DNA of 64,000 nucleotides. Source: Polyangiales bacterium (lineage in GTDB: Bacteria; Myxococcota_A; Polyangia; Polyangiales; Ga0077539). Shown piece by piece: positions 8,430 to 56,923 of the stretch. The notes beneath the pieces were generated by a model, which worked only from the letters and a program-made list of their open reading frames with translations, was not told where the DNA came from and did no database searches. The DNA is taken from NCBI GenBank assembly GCA_044229975.1, contig JBGARZ010000011.1, positions 64,001 to 128,000 on the forward strand, given 5' to 3'. Position 1 is the first letter of the stretch, and each line of letters starts with the position of its first letter. A program made the position numbers and the translations under genes.

Positions 8430-9824
8430 ATGCGGTCGGTGGTGGCGGGGTTCCTGACGTTCGCGTTCGCTTCGAGCTGTGAGCGCCCGCGCACCGAGCT
8501 CATCGTGCGGGTCGATTCCGAGCTCGCCTGGGGTGTTGGCGCGACGGTGCAGTCGGTGGTCCTGAGCGTACGCAGAGGAGGCCCCATCGGCCCGATGCGG
8601 AGTACGCGCATCACGGAGCTCGGATCGGGCGCCGGTCGCCAACCGCTCCCGCTTTCCGTCGGTGTCCTCCCCGCGGACGACGACCTCTCCACGCCGGTGT
8701 GGATCGAGGCGCTCGGATGCAGCAACGCCGCCGGATGTGATCGCGACACGGCGGTCGTCGCGCAGCGCGCAGTGGTCCGCTTCGTTCGTGGGCAGACGCA
8801 GGAGGTGACGCTGCTACTCGCCTCGGCCTGCGAGGCTGTCCAATGCGGGAGTGACGAGCGCTGCGCCACGGTTGCGGGCCGGTGCGAACCCGCGACCAGG
8901 GCGCAGGACACCGTGCGGACCTACGCCGTCGACTACGACGCGGCGCAGCCCCGTGAGGCCGGAGCGACGACGGACAGCGTCGACGCCGGAGCCCCTGAAG
9001 CCGCGACCGACCTCGGCGCCGACACCCACGATGGCGAGACCTTCGTGGACGTTCCCGTGCTGCTCGATGTCACTCCGACGGACGTCATCGCGCGGGTCGA
9101 TGTGGTGAGTCGAGACGACGGAACGACGGACCTCGGCACCGATCGACCCGACGCGGTGGACCTCGGGACCGGCGCCGAGTGCGAGGCGGCTGCTACGCGC
9201 GCCTGCTACACGGGCAACCCCTCCACGCGGATGGTTGGGCTGTGCACCGATGGGTTCCAACGCTGCGTGGGCGGTCGCTGGGCGACGGCGTGCAACGGAG
9301 AGATCGTCCCCGCGGTCGAGACGTGCAACGGCATCGACGACGACTGCGACCGGGCGGTGGACAACATCGCCACGTCGCCCTGCTACACGGGCGCGCCGGG
9401 TACGCAGGGCGTGGGTCTGTGCCGCGCGGGCACCTACCGCTGCGTGGGGAGCACCCGCGCCTGCGCCGGGCAGGTGGTGCCCCATTCGAGCGAGGTGTGC
9501 GGCAACAGGGTGGACGACAACTGCAATGGCATGACCGACGAAGGCTGCGCCACCACGAGCTGCCCCGCGACCAGCCCCGTCCGCTGGAACATCCCGGTCG
9601 GCACGGTCGGAGGCCCGGCGTGTCTCACCAGCGGAGGCGGCTATTGCGAGGGCACGGCGTACTGCTCCGGGGGCACCTGCTCCACCACTCCCCCGGCCGG
9701 TTGCGGCGGGCCGTTCTGCGCCACCTTTCACTGCAACGACGAAACGTATGTGCGCACGCAATATTGTGGCGTCGTCACGGAGTGCAACGGCGGTGTGGTC
9801 TCGGCCACCGGGTACCGGTGGTAG
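8430..9824 (+). CDS. Cys-rich lipoprotein with MopE-like metal-binding repeats
   Basis: Lipobox-like FASSC; acidic linker; ETCNGIDDDCD and EVCGNRVDDNCNG repeats. Confidence 0.85.
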   Translation: MRSVVAGFLTFAFASSCERPRTELIVRVDSELAWGVGATVQSVVLSVRRGGPIGPMRSTRITELGSGAGRQPLPLSVGVLPADDDLSTPVWIEALGCSNAAGCDRDTAVVAQRAVVRFVRGQTQEVTLLLASACEAVQCGSDERCATVAGRCEPATRAQDTVRTYAVDYDAAQPREAGATTDSVDAGAPEAATDLGADTHDGETFVDVPVLLDVTPTDVIARVDVVSRDDGTTDLGTDRPDAVDLGTGAECEAAATRACYTGNPSTRMVGLCTDGFQRCVGGRWATACNGEIVPAVETCNGIDDDCDRAVDNIATSPCYTGAPGTQGVGLCRAGTYRCVGSTRACAGQVVPHSSEVCGNRVDDNCNGMTDEGCATTSCPATSPVRWNIPVGTVGGPACLTSGGGYCEGTAYCSGGTCSTTPPAGCGGPFCATFHCNDETYVRTQYCGVVTECNGGVVSATGYRW

Positions 9825-17359: not shown

Positions 17360-17761
17360 ATGCCCAGCCGAAAGCTCTTCGTCAACCTGCCGGTGCGCGA
17401 CCTGAAGAAGTCCGTGGCCTTCTTCACGAGCCTCGGGTTCGCCTTCAACCCGAAGTTCACCGACGACAAGGCGGCCTGCATGATCGTCAGCGAGGAGGCC
17501 TTCGTGATGCTCCTCGTGCATCCGTTCTTCAACACCTTCACGAAGCGCGAGATCTGCGACGAGAAGCACGTCGAGGCGCTGTTCTCGATCTCGTGTGAGA
17601 GCCGCGCGGAGGTTGACGAGCTGGTGAAGAAGGCCCTCGCCAACGGGGCCGCCCCCGACGTCGACCCGGAGGATCACGGCTTCATGTACTCGTGGAGCTT
17701 CTACGACCTCGACGGCCACGGCTGGGGCGTCCTCTGGATGGACCCGGCCGCCGCGGCGTAG
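17360..17761 (+). CDS. VOC/glyoxalase family protein
   Basis: LFVNLPVRDLKKSVAFF...FNPKFTD...HGFMYSWSFYDLDGH. Confidence 0.92.
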   Translation: MPSRKLFVNLPVRDLKKSVAFFTSLGFAFNPKFTDDKAACMIVSEEAFVMLLVHPFFNTFTKREICDEKHVEALFSISCESRAEVDELVKKALANGAAPDVDPEDHGFMYSWSFYDLDGHGWGVLWMDPAAAA

Positions 17762-17764
17762 GGA

Positions 17765-18199
17765 TCAGCGCGGCCCCACCACGTGGAGCTGGCGCAGGTA
17801 GGCCATCAACGCTGGCATCTCGCTCTCGGGAAGACGATCGACGCCGATCGCGGGCATCCCGTCGGGGGCGCGGCCCGACCCCTCGCGGATCTGCCGACGC
17901 ACGGCAGCCTCGGAGCGGTTGGCCGCCGACAGCGAGCCGCCCGAAGGCACCTGCCACATCGCCAGGTGACACGGCCCGCACACCCTCATGAACACTACGC
18001 TCCCCTGGAGGGCCTGCGCATCGGACGGGGGCCTGGACGGCACCACTGGCGCGGGTGCGCTCGGCGGCGTGTAGACGTCGACCACGACAGGGGCGCCTGC
18101 ATCGGTCGATGCCTCGACGGGCGAAGGCTGCTGCGGCGCTCGGCGAGCCGTCACACAACCGAGCACGAAGACCAGCGCGCAGAGCGGGCGCGCGGTCAC
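17765..18199 (-). CDS. Monoheme c-type cytochrome, probable lipoprotein
   Basis: VLGC lipobox-like; CGPCH; distal GMPA; GTG overlaps the P450 stop. Confidence 0.8.
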   Translation of the reverse strand: MTARPLCALVFVLGCVTARRAPQQPSPVEASTDAGAPVVVDVYTPPSAPAPVVPSRPPSDAQALQGSVVFMRVCGPCHLAMWQVPSGGSLSAANRSEAAVRRQIREGSGRAPDGMPAIGVDRLPESEMPALMAYLRQLHVVGPR

Positions 18200-19542
18200 G
18201 CCTCGATCGCCCGGCGGTGCGCCGTCATCGGCATGCCCCCTCTGGGGCGCAGCGTGACGAGGGGTTCCATCTCCGCGGGCGGCGCCGACGGGGGCAGCTC
18301 GAAGCGCACCCGCTGGGCGAGCGTCGCGAGGGCGAGGTGGCCCTCCATCAGCGCGAAGTGGTTGCCGATGCACACGCGCGGGCCAGCGCCGAAGGGGAGG
18401 AAGGCGTTTTTGGGAAGGGCCTTTTCGGCCTCCGGGGTGAAGCGCTCGGGGTCGAAGCGCTCGGGGTCGGGAAACAGCACCGGGTCGTGGTGCATCCCGA
18501 TGATGTTGATGACGACGAGGTTGCCCTTCGGGATGTGTCGCCCTTCGATGTCGACGTCCCGCAGCGCCCGCCGCGCGATGACGTACGCGGGCGGATAGAG
18601 ACGCATCGCCTCCTTGAAGACCATCATCGCGTAGGGGAGCTTCGCGAGGTCGGCCAGCGTCGGCGTGCGGCCACCGAGGTGGGCGTCGAGCTCGCGCTCC
18701 AGGCGATCGCGCACCGCGGGGTGCTTCGCCAGCAGGTAGAAGGTCCAGGTGAGGGCGTTGGCCGTGGTCTCGTGGCCCGCGAGGAAGATGGTCATGGCCT
18801 CGTCCCGCACCTGCTTGTCGGTCATCGCACCGCCCGCTTCGTCGCGCGCCGCGAGCAGCATGGAGAGGAAGTCGTGGCGCTCGCCCCCGGCCCGGCGGCG
18901 CTCCTCGATGAGCCCGTAGATGATGCGGTCGAGGCGGGCGACGGCGCGCAGCCCGCGGCGGTTGCCCGGCGTCGGCCACGTCGGCGGAATCGGGATCACC
19001 GAGCGCACCATGCGGCTCATCTGGGCCATGGCATCGGTGAGGGCGCCGTGCACCTCCTCGGCCTCCGCGCCGACCTCCGCGCCGAAGAGCGTCGCCCCGA
19101 CGATCTCCAGCGTGAGCCGCATCATCAGGGTGTTGACGTCCACCGACGCACCGTCGCGCAACGTTCGCTGCGCCGCCTCGGAGCGATCGGCGATGGTGGT
19201 CGCGTAGTCCGCGAGGCGCTTCGGCATGAACGACGGCGCCAGCATGCGCCGCTGCTTGCGGTGGAAGGCCCCCTCGCTCGACAGCAGCCCGTCGCCCAGC
19301 ATCGGCTTCATGAAGTAGCTCAGCGCGAGGCCCTTCATGAACGCGTCGCTCTGCTCGACCAGCACCGCGTGCGCGATGGCCGGGTCGGTCACGAGCTGCG
19401 ACTGCACCAGGCCGCCCCAGAGCGACATGCGCGCGATGGGCCCGTGCCGCCGCGGGACGGTCAACAGGAAGTCGACGCGCGTCTCCTGCCGCCGCAGGCG
19501 GAGCCGCTCGACGAAGGTCACGACGGGGATGGGTTGGTTCAT
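18196..19542 (-). CDS. Cytochrome P450
   Basis: AGHETT, EAMR, PERF, PFGAGPRVCIG; GGAGG RBS upstream. Confidence 0.96.
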   Translation of the reverse strand: MNQPIPVVTFVERLRLRRQETRVDFLLTVPRRHGPIARMSLWGGLVQSQLVTDPAIAHAVLVEQSDAFMKGLALSYFMKPMLGDGLLSSEGAFHRKQRRMLAPSFMPKRLADYATTIADRSEAAQRTLRDGASVDVNTLMMRLTLEIVGATLFGAEVGAEAEEVHGALTDAMAQMSRMVRSVIPIPPTWPTPGNRRGLRAVARLDRIIYGLIEERRRAGGERHDFLSMLLAARDEAGGAMTDKQVRDEAMTIFLAGHETTANALTWTFYLLAKHPAVRDRLERELDAHLGGRTPTLADLAKLPYAMMVFKEAMRLYPPAYVIARRALRDVDIEGRHIPKGNLVVINIIGMHHDPVLFPDPERFDPERFTPEAEKALPKNAFLPFGAGPRVCIGNHFALMEGHLALATLAQRVRFELPPSAPPAEMEPLVTLRPRGGMPMTAHRRAIEA

Positions 19543-47613: not shown

Positions 47614-47868
47614 GGTCGTGCTCTCCCTCCAGAATGGAGGCGCGCACCGTACTTTCCCGCCCGCCGTCGAATCAAGCGTCGTGATGGGGCGGTTTTGCGG
47701 GCGTGGTCAGGGAAGTTCCCACCGACCCGGGTGGGCTGGTCAGCGGTGTCCCACCCCATGGACGCGCTGCGTTACAGGCATTTCACGACGATTCATGGGG
47801 CGGTCGTGCGAGCATGGCGTGGCCCGGGTACTGCACTGTCATCGTCCCGAACCTCCATGGAGACCGCG

Positions 47869-48963
47869 ATGCGAACCCCGACCTCGACCGACCGTTCCCC
47901 CCGCTGGCTGTTGAGCCTGAGCATGGTGATGGTCGCGTGCGCCACCAACACCGACGACACGACGCCGACGGTGACCATGGCGGGCTTCGTTCCGGACACG
48001 GAGATCACCGAGGCCGAGCAGGCGGCGGGCGTTCGCACCGACGGCACCACCGAGCCCGAAAACGACTTCACCGCCCCGACGGCGGAGACCGACGGCGACG
48101 TGGCCTCGCTCGCGCCGGCCTTCGACGAGACGGGCGTCACGACGGCGGGCGCGGACGGCACGGGCGTGGCGGTCGACGCGGTGACGGGCTGTCGCGCGGC
48201 GGCCGGGTACAGCCACGGCAACCGCACCAACATCTGCGTGGTGTCGGTCGACGGCAAGCTGGTCGAGGTTCGCACCGCGCAGGCCTTCTCGGCGATGCGC
48301 GCGGCGGCGCGCTCGGCGGGCGTCAACATCACGATCGTCAGCGGCTTCCGCACGATGGATCAGCAGCGCTACCTCTACAACCTGTACCTCGCGGGCCGCG
48401 GCAACCTCGCGGCGCGGCCGGGCTACTCCAACCACCAGAGCGGCCTCGCGCTCGACCTCAACACCAGCAGCGGCGGCGTCTACAACTGGCTCTCGCGCAA
48501 CGCGTCGCGCTTCGGGTTCCGCCGCACGGTGCCGAGCGAGGCGTGGCACTGGGAGCGCCCGGCCGGGTCGCAGGGGTCGTTCTCGGGCGGCAGCTCGACC
48601 AACCGTTGCTACTCCTCGACGCTGGGCCGCGAGGTGGCCGAGAAGACCTGCGTCGAGTCGCGGCTCGATAGTGCCTGGTACCAGTGCGACAACGGGAGCT
48701 GGATCGCCGGTCGCGCCAGCCGCGGCGCGTGCTCGGCGTCGTACCCGCTCAGCGGCGGCAACACCGGCGGCGGCACGAGCGGCGGCAGCGGCACCTGCTA
48801 CAGCGGCACGCTCGGCCGTGACCTGCGCGTGGGCTCGTGCCTCCAGAGCCGCTTCGACAGCGCGTGGTACCAGTGCGCCAGCATCGGGTGGGTGCTCAAC
48901 AGCAGCATCCCCTCCACGCGCCGCGGCTACGCCGGGGCGTGCAGCAGCTACACGCCGCTCTGA
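47869..48963 (+). CDS. M15B (VanY-like) carboxypeptidase lipoprotein with two Cys-rich C-terminal repeats
   Basis: SGFRT...Q, AARPGYSNHQSGLALD, EAWHW; duplicated CYS-x-TLGR...SR-x-DSAWYQC. Confidence 0.9.
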   Translation: MRTPTSTDRSPRWLLSLSMVMVACATNTDDTTPTVTMAGFVPDTEITEAEQAAGVRTDGTTEPENDFTAPTAETDGDVASLAPAFDETGVTTAGADGTGVAVDAVTGCRAAAGYSHGNRTNICVVSVDGKLVEVRTAQAFSAMRAAARSAGVNITIVSGFRTMDQQRYLYNLYLAGRGNLAARPGYSNHQSGLALDLNTSSGGVYNWLSRNASRFGFRRTVPSEAWHWERPAGSQGSFSGGSSTNRCYSSTLGREVAEKTCVESRLDSAWYQCDNGSWIAGRASRGACSASYPLSGGNTGGGTSGGSGTCYSGTLGRDLRVGSCLQSRFDSAWYQCASIGWVLNSSIPSTRRGYAGACSSYTPL

Positions 48964-49054
48964 TCTTCTCCCCGCCTACGATCACAGAAATACGCGCTTC
49001 GCGCGGAAGTTCATAGACAGATTTTCTCGCGCGGCCGTGGCACTCCGTCCCACG

Positions 49055-50433
49055 ATGGCCAAACCTCCGACCGTGCGGGATGAACGGGATTTCAAGGCGT
49101 TTGTCGCCGAGCAGCCGCTCGCGTGGACGATGCCCTCGCAGCCCGCACTCATGGGCCTGCACCTCGGGACGCACGCCGAACCCGCTGCTTCGACGAGGAC
49201 GCTGCGCGACGACGAGCGGCTGTGGGAGGCGTGGTGGCGCGACGAGCTGTCGCTCGACGACACCGTGCGTGCGGGACGGCGGACGGCGACCGTGGGTCGA
49301 CTGCTGGCGTCATCTTTCTGCACGCGCACGACCGGCGGTCTCATGAGGTGGCCGAGCGCGAGCGCCTCGACGAGCTGAGCGAGTTCTCGGCGGAGCTGCG
49401 CCGCGCCCTCGGAGCGGTGCGCGTGGTGTCGCATGACTGCGGAAGCACCCGCGGCGTGATCCTGCGCGACCCGGCCGACCCCGAGGTGCTCGCGCCACCG
49501 CTCCACGAACGCGCGCTGGGTCGCGTCCTCGCGGACGACGTCGTCACTCACGCGGGCGAGGTGCTGGCGCGCGCGGGTGAGGTCATCGGTCCCCGTCACC
49601 ACGCGGTGTGGGACCGCGTCGACGAGGTCTCCATCCGCTCTCTCGCCACATGCGGTGAGAGCGACGGGGTGTGCGCGCGCTGCTACGGGCTCGACCCCGA
49701 TGAAGGAACCATCATGCAGCCCGTCGAGCCGGACGACGGGCGGGAGTGGACGATCCCGATCGACGCCGGGCACTGGTTGCAGACGCCGCTCGGATCGGTG
49801 GTCGAGCGGGGCGACGAGATCGCCGTGGGCGGCTGGGTACACGCGCGCTTCGGTGACGCTGACTGCACACTGCACGAAGTGCGCGATCACCTCGACCTCG
49901 CGCGCGGCGACGTCTCGACCCCTTCACCCTGCGACGGCGTGGTGCTGCGACTCGACACGGGGCGGGTCGTGGTGCGCTCCTTCGCGGGTCGCGAGTATTC
50001 GTTGAGGGGTCGTCGGCCCACGTTCGCCGTCCGCGCAGGCGACCTGGTCGTACGCGGCGAGCCGCTCACCTACGGAGCGACGAGCCAGCGGCGCCTCCTG
50101 CGCATCGTCGGCGAGGAGGCCGTGGCCGCGCTCATCACCGAGACCATCGAGCACCATGCGGTCTGGGGGAAGGTGCCCTTTGCGCGCGTGCACGCCGAGC
50201 TCCTCGCCCGCGCGATGCTCTCGTGGCGGAGGGTGCGTCGACCCGGCGACACCGGGCTCACGCGCAACGCCGTCGTGTCCCGTGCCAAGTGCGATCGTGT
50301 GCAGCGGGAGACCATCGCCCGAGGGGGACAGCCCGCCGAGGTGGTGCCGATCATCAAGGGGCTCGGTCGCCTCGCTGGGCGCCGCTGGATGCTCACCCAC
50401 CGCGAGCGCATGGCGCGCCGCGACGATGAGTGA
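49055..50433 (+). pseudogene. Divergent stand-alone RNA polymerase beta' (RpoC)-like gene, frameshifted and internally deleted
   Basis: First frame (49055-~49305): MPSQPALMGL...TATVGRLL. Second frame (~49305-50433): VVSHDCGS, LHERALGRVLADDV, IRSLATC...GVCARCYGLD, GDLVVRGEPLTYG, HAELLARAML, PGDT, IIKGLGRLA, colinear with RpoC; no NADFDGD. Confidence 0.82.
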
Positions 50434-50498: not shown

Positions 50499-50858
50499 AT
50501 GAGGCCCCTGACGATCGAGCTCCCCGACGATCTCGTGGAGCGGTTGAAGCCCGTCTCCGACCGCATGGTCGCCGTGCTCGAACGTGGCCTCCGTGAAGTG
50601 GACGCCACGGAGCCTGGGTTCGGCGGGGTCGTAGAGGTGATGGAGTTTCTCGCGGGCCTTCCGGCGCCCGATGAGGTGCTCGCGTTGCGCCCTTCCGCGC
50701 GCTTCGAGCATCGGGTCCGTGAGCTGCTCGATCGCAGCGGCACAGCAGGTCTGTCGCCGGACGAGGAGCGCGAGTGGGCTCAGTATGAGTTCGTCGAGCA
50801 CCTCGTTCGCAAGGCGAAGGCGCGCGCCGCAGCGCTCACGCGACGCGTCCCGGCGTGA
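50499..50858 (+). CDS. Small putative antitoxin-like protein
   Basis: N-terminal LTIELPDDL; C-terminal LSPDEEREW...EHLVRKAK; GTGA overlap with the HNH gene. Confidence 0.7.
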   Translation: MRPLTIELPDDLVERLKPVSDRMVAVLERGLREVDATEPGFGGVVEVMEFLAGLPAPDEVLALRPSARFEHRVRELLDRSGTAGLSPDEEREWAQYEFVEHLVRKAKARAAALTRRVPA

Positions 50859-51280
50859 CTCGGATCTATGTGGCAGCCAGCCTGCGGCGACTCGTCCGCG
50901 AGCGTGCCCAAGGCCGCTGCGAGTACTGCTTGACGCCCGAGAGCGTCTCCTTCGTACCGCACGAGCCCGATCACATCATCGCGCAGAAGCACGACGGCGC
51001 CACGGACGAAGGAAACCTCGCCCTCTGCTGTTCGCTCTGCAACAAACACAAAGGAACCGACCTCGCGTCCGTCGACCCGGCGTCTGGAGAGGTGGTGTTG
51101 CTGTATCACCCGCGACGCGACCGATGGGCGGAGCACTTCCAGCTCGGCGAGCTTCGCATTGAGGGAGTGTCACCATCTGGCCGAGCGACCGTCAGGCTAT
51201 TGAGGTTGAACCGCGCGGAGTGCCTCGACGAGCGTGCGCTGCTCGTCGTGGCCGAGCTCTGGCCGTACACGCCGCGGTGA
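50855..51280 (+). CDS. HNH endonuclease
   Basis: RAQGRCEYC, DHIIAQKHDG...NLALCCSLCNKHKG, LYHPR...W-x-EHF. Confidence 0.92.
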   Translation: MTRIYVAASLRRLVRERAQGRCEYCLTPESVSFVPHEPDHIIAQKHDGATDEGNLALCCSLCNKHKGTDLASVDPASGEVVLLYHPRRDRWAEHFQLGELRIEGVSPSGRATVRLLRLNRAECLDERALLVVAELWPYTPR

Positions 51281-56312: not shown

Positions 56313-56699
56313 CTACCAGACGATGTCGACGCCGAACGCGCGCAGCGCCGGGTCGACGCTGACGATGGGCATCGGTTCGAGCCGGGCCTGCGCGGCGAGC
56401 ATGCGGTCGAAGGGGTCGCGGTGATCGCTCGCGAAGGAGCCCGCGAGCTCGGCGTGGGCAGCGCTGATGGAGAGCAGCTCGAACCCGCTGCGCTGGAGAT
56501 GACCCGGGAGGTCATCCATCAGGGCCGCCACGCCCGGGAGCTTTCCGAGCCGGTATTTCGTCGCGATCTCCCAGACCGATGCGGCGCTCACGAAGAGGGC
56601 GTTGGCGCGGCTCTGCATGGCCCTCTTCGCGGGTCGCGAGAGCTGCTTGTCGTCCGCCAGCCACCACAACACCGCGTGGGTGTCGACCAGCAGCCTCAT
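56313..56699 (-). CDS. vapC: VapC-family PIN-domain toxin
   Basis: LLVDTH...SAASVWEI...HRDPFDRMLAAQA...SVD. Confidence 0.93.
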   Translation of the reverse strand: MRLLVDTHAVLWWLADDKQLSRPAKRAMQSRANALFVSAASVWEIATKYRLGKLPGVAALMDDLPGHLQRSGFELLSISAAHAELAGSFASDHRDPFDRMLAAQARLEPMPIVSVDPALRAFGVDIVW

Positions 56700-56923
56700 C
56701 GCTCCCACGCGTCGAGCTCGTCGTCAGGCAGCGGCTCGAAAAACGCCGCGTCGACCGTGACCTTCCCTGCATAGGCCCCGGGCCTGCGCGGCCCCTCGTA
56801 GATCGGAACCAGGCGCACGGCCGGCTTGCCCGCGCGTGCGATGACCACCTCCTCGCCCGCCAGCGCCGCCTCGATGAGACGCGAGAGCTGGGTCTTGGCG
56901 GCACCGACGTTGACGATGCTCAT
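56696..56923 (-). CDS. Phd/YefM-family antitoxin
   Basis: VNVGAAKTQLSRLIE...GEEVVIARAGKPAVRL; ATGA overlap with the toxin. Confidence 0.92.
   Translation of the reverse strand: MSIVNVGAAKTQLSRLIEAALAGEEVVIARAGKPAVRLVPIYEGPRRPGAYAGKVTVDAAFFEPLPDDELDAWER

Follow-up and report, generated by a model that had tools for sequence, protein, structure and literature searches.

As marker genes, rpoB and rpoC of bacterial RNA polymerase are taken to exist in one copy and to evolve slowly; dead paralogs of them under selection are unexpected. The separate β″ subunit (RpoC2) of cyanobacteria and plastids has retained its catalytic helices (bridge and trigger) and partners with RpoC1, and functional duplicates such as the rifamycin-resistant rpoB2 of actinomycetes keep catalysis as well. 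Inactive enzyme copies have been proposed as decoys (Kaur et al. 2020, PMC7159879), and RNA polymerase is absent from the main text of that paper. The terms 'paralog', 'duplicat' and 'inactive' are absent from the main text of a 2024 survey of β/β′ architectures (PMC11515920). Searches of the open-access literature turned up no account of rpoC or rpoB paralogs that are non-catalytic; subscription papers or supplements could mention them. The non-catalytic RNA polymerase mimics analyzed here form an apparently undescribed family.

The window, a stretch of 64,000 nucleotides from a Polyangiales bacterium, contains at 49055..50433 a gene that an earlier note, made from the letters alone, had read as a stand-alone β′-like gene outside any rpoBC operon. 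This reading holds. The gene is a real RpoC (β′) homolog, with a similarity far beyond chance in both phmmer and TIGR02386 searches. Its frame B matches the β′ chains of the PDB with an E-value of 9.4e-25 (phmmer) and TIGR02386 with an E-value of 1.4e-23 and 82.7 bits, where the equivalog cut-off is 963.5; an intact relative, P0004, reaches 171.5 bits and also stays below that cut-off. The note had made its reading depend on a significant RpoC-domain match, and had proposed Pfam models for both frames. The Pfam scan gives no match for frame A, frame B or P0004, so this check alone would have failed, and it is TIGR02386 that recognizes frame B. The one canonical rpoBC of the assembly (10.0 Mb, 39 contigs, 93% complete) lies apart from the window gene on contig C27, and in a six-frame search of the whole assembly NADFDGD and GEPGTQLT occur once each, in the canonical rpoC of C27. 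No rpoB-like frame lies beside the pseudo-β′ loci in 18 flanking loci.

The RpoC-like blocks named in the note are all present in the sequence, spread over two frames that switch near 49310. Frame A holds MPSQPALMGL at 49130 and TATVGRLL at 49283. Frame B holds IFLHAHDRRSHE at 49312, LHERALGRVLADDV at 49501 and, towards the C terminus, HAELLARAML at 50191 and IIKGLGRLA at 50350, before the stop at 50431-50433. The features of the locus are:

48964..49054, no strand: left edge of an accessory stretch of ~49 kb, of which the pseudo-β′ gene is the first gene
49055..49311, plus strand: 5′ piece of the pseudo-β′ gene (frame A), with the start codon, the PSQD-like block and the TTVGR-like block; E. 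coli β′ ~495-581
49306..49314, plus strand: junction of deletion 1, with ~173 codons gone and a frame change; E. coli ~582-771
49312..49378, plus strand: out-of-frame run-on of frame A, with its stop at 49376-49378
49312..50433, plus strand: 3′ piece (frame B), with rewritten bridge helix, zinc site, SI3 remnant, jaw/hybrid region, trigger helix 2 region and C-terminal helix
49312..49431, plus strand: rewritten bridge helix; the Arg equivalent to E. coli R780 is present, HGARKG/DTALKT is absent
49432..49692, plus strand: β′ C-terminal zinc site; Cys codons at 49438, 49651, 49672 and 49681 equal E. coli C814, C888, C895 and C898
49714..49725, plus strand: junction of deletion 2, in frame, with ~160 codons gone (trigger helix 1 and most of SI3)
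50191..50376, plus strand: C-terminal blocks HAELLARAML...GDTGL...IIKGLGRLA; E. coli HIEVIVRQML to LLGITKASL region

The closest intact relative of the gene is P0004, a protein of 608 aa from genome G027. The 5′ piece (GC3 0.82) is 47% identical to residues 1-93 of P0004 (pairwise E 7e-25), and the 3′ piece is 48% identical to residues 261-607. Alignment to P0004 places deletion 1 over its residues 88-260 and thereby over the funnel, the rim helices and the F-loop; the large internal gap with which, according to the note, the frameshift coincides is this deletion of ~173 codons. The codon-position GC pattern of the frame A run-on is shifted (0.35/0.85/0.95). Deletion 2, placed by alignment and by BLAST to P0006 (263-393 and 537-780), falls after GTIMQ and is specific to the window copy in comparison with the relatives of 790-808 aa. 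Also missing are switch 5 and the β′ C-terminal end. With the rim helices, deletion 1 has removed the rim-helix tip, the best-conserved element of the paralog family. The catalytic parts are absent, as claimed: there is no NADFDGD loop region, no HGARKG/DTALKT, and the trigger helix and loop are deleted. The lost trigger loop is nevertheless a property of this copy and not of the family, since the intact relatives keep a rewritten trigger helix. The 3′ piece could be translated separately from a GTG at 49348 (361 aa, P0003), and the promoter scan gave no sigma-70-like site. Programmed frameshifting was considered and rejected, as visual inspection of the junction shows no standard slippery heptamer and a frameshifted product would be without the rim helices anyway. 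The window copy is likely a pseudogene.

A profile built from 13 paralogs was searched against 31 genomes of the host's Polyangiales family, and non-catalytic β′ paralogs were found at 16 loci in 13 of them. Eight other genomes of the host's genus (64-94% complete) have no non-canonical β′ locus. Intact homologs do exist in Myxococcota, as relatives of 608–808 residues. The short type begins at the PSQD block and is either fused, like the window gene, or split as two adjacent genes, the first of which ends FHI(G)C-stop at E. coli ~937. The long type has an additional barrel with a degenerate catalytic loop; the catalytic NADFDGD region is absent in the short type and degenerate in the long and full-length types. 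The host carries a second pseudo-β′ locus on contig C32, an intact long-type split pair (L021:7218-8888 and 8912-9619, G000) with a degenerate catalytic barrel, an intact rim tip and a FHIC-stop end. Split paralogs (P0007-P0044; loci L021, L028-L035, L046, L189) end FHI(G)C-stop or similarly at the trigger-loop tip, and an end of this kind, whose terminal Cys is new, is present in 21 of 61 database paralogs.

The database paralogs come from a search of 1.84 billion cluster representatives. Among the best 149 new matches, 61 lack all three catalytic-region motifs and 71 have both the bridge and the trigger motif; 17 intermediate rows were excluded from the conservation comparison. One of the database paralogs is from Polyangiaceae and one, full-length, from a Chloroflexota record. 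Full-length non-catalytic β′ proteins of 1150-1400 aa (P0031, P0048, P0084, P0092, P0104, P0110, P0140, P0148) likely have several origins. Some non-catalytic paralogs carry the database label 'RNA polymerase subunit beta-prime', which is a trap for marker phylogeny. Outside the host's family, β′ paralogs are rare among the genomes searched: an extra match was found in 1 of 127 other genomes of the order (G138; 21 candidates scored per genome, the unpublished genome G137 counted as negative), and, with 9 candidates scored per genome, a putative second match in 5 of 199 further genomes sampled from the order, class and phylum. In G009, a further rpoBC-like operon lies at C515:1-5629; it is more distant (RpoB 66%; RpoC 82% in the N-terminal third, with a frame of 1432 aa) and represents either contamination or a second polymerase.

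In a 29-row IQ-TREE phylogeny, the window gene falls into a 100/99 clade with a total of seven fused short-type paralogs, and a clade of the window gene with the host rpoC is rejected (AU p 9.8e-9). The note had named branching with the host rpoC, together with a lack of intact homologs, as the mark of simple debris; the gene branches elsewhere, and its homologs are intact and selected. In a 131-row FastTree, limited by long branches and composition bias, the starred branches require at least 4 label changes, and a repeated origin of dead β′ copies is therefore likely. For the two close short-type pairs, dN/dS is estimated at 0.19 (95% bootstrap 0.13-0.27; 93 synonymous and 52 non-synonymous changes) and 0.34 (0.23-0.51), and the upper bound is below 1 in all nine paralog pairs tested; by these estimates the intact paralogs are under purifying selection. 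Evolution is also fast: the paralogs of G019 and G030 are 54-58% identical, and seven neighboring genes are 81-95% identical. The note had inferred that the gene was a non-catalytic paralog for a long time before the frameshift arose; the AU rejection and the intact homologs under purifying selection support this.

The pattern of conservation was compared between 62 paralogs and 59 canonical RpoC as identity to the host RpoC in E. coli numbering. Over positions 515-935, mean identity is 0.26 in paralogs versus 0.45 in canonical RpoC. The bridge-helix core (781-795) stands at 0.09 versus 0.84 with only R780 retained (55/62), and trigger helix 1 (921-931; GEPGTQLTMRTFH in functional β′) at 0.17 versus 0.99. 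H936 is found in 30 of the 62, and the F-loop is at 0.35 versus 0.72. In the zinc segment identity is 0.50 versus 0.60; C814, C888, C895 and C898 are present in 62, 61, 61 and 62 of the 62 paralogs, and all four remain in the window copy, as had been noted. Kept in 90-98% of paralogs are G636, S638 and D643, which presumably have a role at the β interface, and the retained positions are for the most part occupied by Gly, by Cys or by Arg/Asp that are likely structural.

The best 15-residue window of the paralogs is 670-684. Identity at the rim-helix tip (670-686) is 0.61 in the paralogs, gathered with a profile that includes the tip, versus 0.59 in canonical RpoC; after removal of the 13 rows most similar to the profile seeds it is still 0.60 (49 rows), and it is 0.55 in 14 full-length paralogs. 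T674, D675, G676 and D684, on the variable tip surface, are conserved in paralogs at least as well as in canonical RpoC. E677 is present in 61/62 and D684 in 51/62, and position 673 is hydrophobic in 58/62. Position 672, where GreB/DksA binding requires a hydrophobic residue, has one in only 38/62 (Glu in 10, Gln in 7); of the six rows of the window gene's subfamily, four have it. E677, R678 and W686 are near-invariant in canonical RpoC too, and may be kept for folding alone. Gre and DksA binding has been placed at β′ V673-E685 (PMC7527559), substitutions of L672/V673 lower or abolish GreB and DksA action (PMC3333854), E677G is DksA-blind (PMC6488371), Y679, N680, I683 and D684 lie at ppGpp site 2 (bioRxiv 10.1101/188680), and secondary-channel inhibitors are treated (PMC11724273). 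GreA-like matches number five per genome in G027, G025 and G029, which are three of the five genomes with a fused pseudo-β′, and two and one in the others (G019 and G030, respectively).

An AlphaFold2 model of P0004, made from an alignment of 106 sequences of which 45 are motif-bearing RpoC, has a pLDDT of 91 and a pTM of 0.89. Its superposition on β′, a check suggested in the note, gives a TM-score of 0.80. A paralog-only model from 7 sequences has a pLDDT of 56 and a poor global fit. For the intact relatives, the predicted fold resembles the secondary-channel half of the polymerase.

A parallel is found in RpoB. With the host RpoB as query, non-catalytic RpoB paralogs appear as extra matches of 29-54% identity in 21 of the 31 family genomes. 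They are of at least two types (L077-L091, L104-L115), with dN/dS of 0.28-0.55. Neither lysine of GDKxAGRHGNKG, which we take to be the catalytic, active-site lysines of RpoB, is kept in the 22 loci having the region, of 23 aligned. The best window of these paralogs, RDIKQQEVYFGEIPL, stands at 0.62 against a mean of 0.17 (23 loci), and Glu occupies the third position of the β1 IKE-type motif in 23/23, the matches having been found partly through this motif. We assume that the host RpoB strand is correctly mapped to the E. coli numbering of the Mfd/CarD-type site. The β1 IKE-type strand binds Mfd and CarD-type domains, according to PMC3001067.

Clamp-region β′ paralogs occur in 5 of the 31 genomes, and several are fused to βC-like and αCTD domains. 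Single proteins with a βC-like part, the β′ clamp zinc region/barrel and a C-terminal αCTD are encoded at L094:1132-3657, L095:5360-8158 and L096:5588-8284 (genus g9), and clamp-only β′ versions at L092, L093, L097-L100 and L103. Some polymerase-like piece, be it β, β′ or fusion, is present in 24/31 family genomes. In the host (G000), C11:236729-237160 on the minus strand encodes a remnant of ~86 residues, 51% identical to the short-type pseudo-β of relatives, which suggests that the host lost a pseudo-β. GyrA and SecA have no divergent paralogs, with nothing below 57% identity in the 31 genomes, and general paralog decay was rejected accordingly. RpoA has extra matches of αCTD size only, and PNPase has one extra match of 25-34% in 16/31 genomes, in a frame of 250-340 aa that is presumably RNase PH. 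In the host, GyrA, SecA, RpoA, NusA, PolA, PurL, PyrG and UvrB each match themselves only. A second gyrA in G026 (C5:74320) is frameshifted.

The accessory stretch headed by the window gene is delimited by comparison with the congeners G003 and G004, in which a VanY-like gene adjoins the ABC permease found 49 kb further in the host contig. This VanY-type peptidase gene (window 47857-48963), with Cys-rich C-terminal repeats, is syntenic in five congeners and marks the left edge. The stretch contains two Septu pairs, a PIN-Phd pair (window 56313-56923), two Uma2 genes, an HNH gene and ordinary metabolic genes. Directly downstream of the pseudo-β′ gene, at window 50499-51280, a small gene overlaps the HNH gene in a toxin-antitoxin-like arrangement. 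The Septu (PtuA/PtuB) pairs lie beyond the window (L200:13751-16089 and 17425-19370, G000 C2), ~28-33 kb from the pseudo-β′ gene. This setting lends weak support to a defense role of the pseudo-β′. No conserved operon or defense neighborhood is found among 40 loci clustered, there is no PADLOC match, and no effector fusion occurs across the β′ loci. Neighbors are common only to loci of close relatives, and some loci are syntenic across species of one genus, as for vertically kept genes. A phage origin was rejected: no viral-contig relative of the pseudo-β′ was found, the ten best phage-record matches are 24-32% identical and annotated rpoC or unannotated, and the loci are chromosomal without nearby phage genes.

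We propose, with a probability of roughly 45%, that the intact paralogs act as decoys for RNA polymerase-docking proteins. An intact member would be made as protein and would fold, without β, as the secondary-channel half of β′. The folded paralog would display the rim-helix tip (E. coli 670-686), which is the Gre/DksA/ppGpp-site-2 surface, and proteins aimed at this site would bind the paralog instead of the polymerase. A foreign binder, such as an inhibitor from a phage or a competitor, is somewhat favored over titration of the cell's own GreA/DksA because of the patchy occurrence, fast change and frequent loss of the family. The note had thought of a decoy or modulator of RNAP-binding factors; we infer the same from the preferential conservation of the rim tip, which could not be seen in the window since its copy has deleted the tip.

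Several observations argue for decoys. The rim tip stands at 0.61 against a mean of 0.26 with the bridge and trigger helices collapsed, and the dN/dS bounds lie below 1. The 23 RpoB paralogs likewise keep a factor-docking strand best and lose the lysines, GyrA and SecA have no divergent paralogs, and the window copy shares its stretch with two Septu systems. The model of P0004 is confident, with canonical RpoC rows in its alignment, and inactive-enzyme decoys were proposed before in multicellular prokaryotes (PMC7159879). A catalytically dead paralog beside an active copy and under purifying selection is found at the level of the family, the window copy being broken. Against decoys speak the frequent loss of a hydrophobic residue at 672, the tip-containing profile, the lack of shared neighbors, effector fusions and PADLOC matches, the distance of the Septu genes, the genus-level synteny of some loci and the low pLDDT of the paralog-only model.

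Alternatively, the pseudo-β′ pieces may assemble on real or pseudo subunits into an inactive complex that stores or titrates subunits, which we consider rather unlikely. The paralog types roughly tile the polymerase, as pseudo-β (~30-1150), βC-β′N-αCTD fusion, β′ middle (~500-937) and β′ C-part; full-length non-catalytic β′ proteins exist, G636, S638 and D643 are kept, and pseudo-β is also present in 10 of the 13 genomes with a β′-middle paralog. However, the pieces are unlinked, 11 of the 21 pseudo-β genomes gave no β′-middle match, and besides two pseudo-β′ loci the host (93% complete) has of pseudo-β only the ~86-residue remnant. Moreover, barrel and clamp, which make up most of the β-β′ interface, are absent from the short type, and the inward-facing residues of the bridge helix are lost.

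A little less probable again is that the fold has been reused as a scaffold for a function unrelated to polymerase partners, with the rim tip conserved for structure only. The predominance of Gly, Cys and likely structural Arg/Asp among the retained positions would fit, as would the new C-terminal motif FHI(G)C-stop or similar, but structure alone sits poorly with the conservation of T674, D675, G676 and D684, at least equal to that in canonical RpoC, and with RpoB paralogs that independently keep the factor-docking strand best.

For the window locus only, the break could be an artefact of assembly, the gene of the organism being intact; this we hold to be improbable. The genome is a draft, and the canonical rpoC and gyrA of the relative G025 carry frameshifts (C28:85065 and C60:26282) that are likely assembly indels. 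By a simple counting method, GC-biased, dN/dS of the window lineage versus G027 is 0.46-0.58, like the 0.48 between intact members, so that any break, real or not, would be recent, and the break of the window copy probably is. Nevertheless, two separate deletions of ~500 bp each take out a family-conserved core, and of the alternatives 'decayed or misassembled' left by the note, real decay is therefore favored over misassembly. Moreover, the missing segments are nowhere else in the assembly save in the canonical rpoC and the C32 paralog, and damage recurs in the family, with 3 of the 16 loci frameshifted and in-frame deletions in the paralogs of G027 and G030. Neutral debris, that is, old rpoC duplicates slowly decaying in large GC-rich genomes, would explain the high turnover, the fragments and frameshifts and a divergence much faster than that of neighbors, but for the family it is contradicted, and most improbable, by reading frames of 400-1400 codons that have stayed open with ~26% identity to RpoC, the retention of each of the four cysteines in 61/62 or more of the paralogs, the dN/dS values of the close pairs, the absence of such debris for GyrA and SecA and the rejected clade with host rpoC. 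The window copy itself is probably in such a state today.

The decoy reading can be widened, in a form that is possible though doubtful: myxobacteria and some other large-genome bacteria may keep renewable RNA polymerase mimics that soak up proteins of phages and competitors. Such mimics would have arisen from rpoBC over and over as dead β, β′ and αCTD pieces, and every piece would present a single docking surface (rim-helix tip, β1 strand, clamp zinc domain or αCTD). Together they would form a so far undescribed decoy shield of the polymerase. If the paralogs are decoys, they mark polymerase surfaces that are attacked in nature and could serve as baits for new polymerase inhibitors; if they titrate Gre/DksA or bind β, they represent an additional level of transcription control. 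As natural deletion experiments, the paralogs can also show which parts of β′ fold alone. Their value rests with the family, as the window copy is likely dead.

Among known systems, RpoC itself (TIGR02386) shares with the paralogs the collinear homology from the PSQD to the LLGIT block, the zinc site and the predicted fold (TM-score 0.80). The paralogs differ in having no clamp or NADFDGD loop and rewritten bridge and trigger helices, in standing alone outside an rpoBC operon with the canonical rpoBC also present, and in scoring 83-174 bits against the cut-off of 963.5. RpoC2 of cyanobacteria and plastids (TIGR02388) is likewise a polypeptide in its own right, corresponding to about the C-terminal two-thirds of β′, whereas the paralogs score 50-127 bits against its cut-off of 467, and have rewritten catalytic helices, no adjacent partner gene and a recurrent split at E. 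coli ~937. The split β′ of large phages comes to mind through the nearest ESM Atlas feature clusters, which are viral Rpb1_5 proteins of 470-620 aa (score 0.93, a lead only), but the paralog loci are chromosomal, without viral context or other subunits. With the rifamycin-resistant rpoB2 of actinomycetes the paralogs have in common that a large polymerase subunit exists in a second copy, yet the β′ and β paralogs are without every catalytic motif tested. Although the β′ paralogs are not embedded in a ternary conflict operon, they share with the conflict-system decoys, as PMC7159879 presents them, an inactive enzyme copy, the active form in the same cell and a host of multicellular type.
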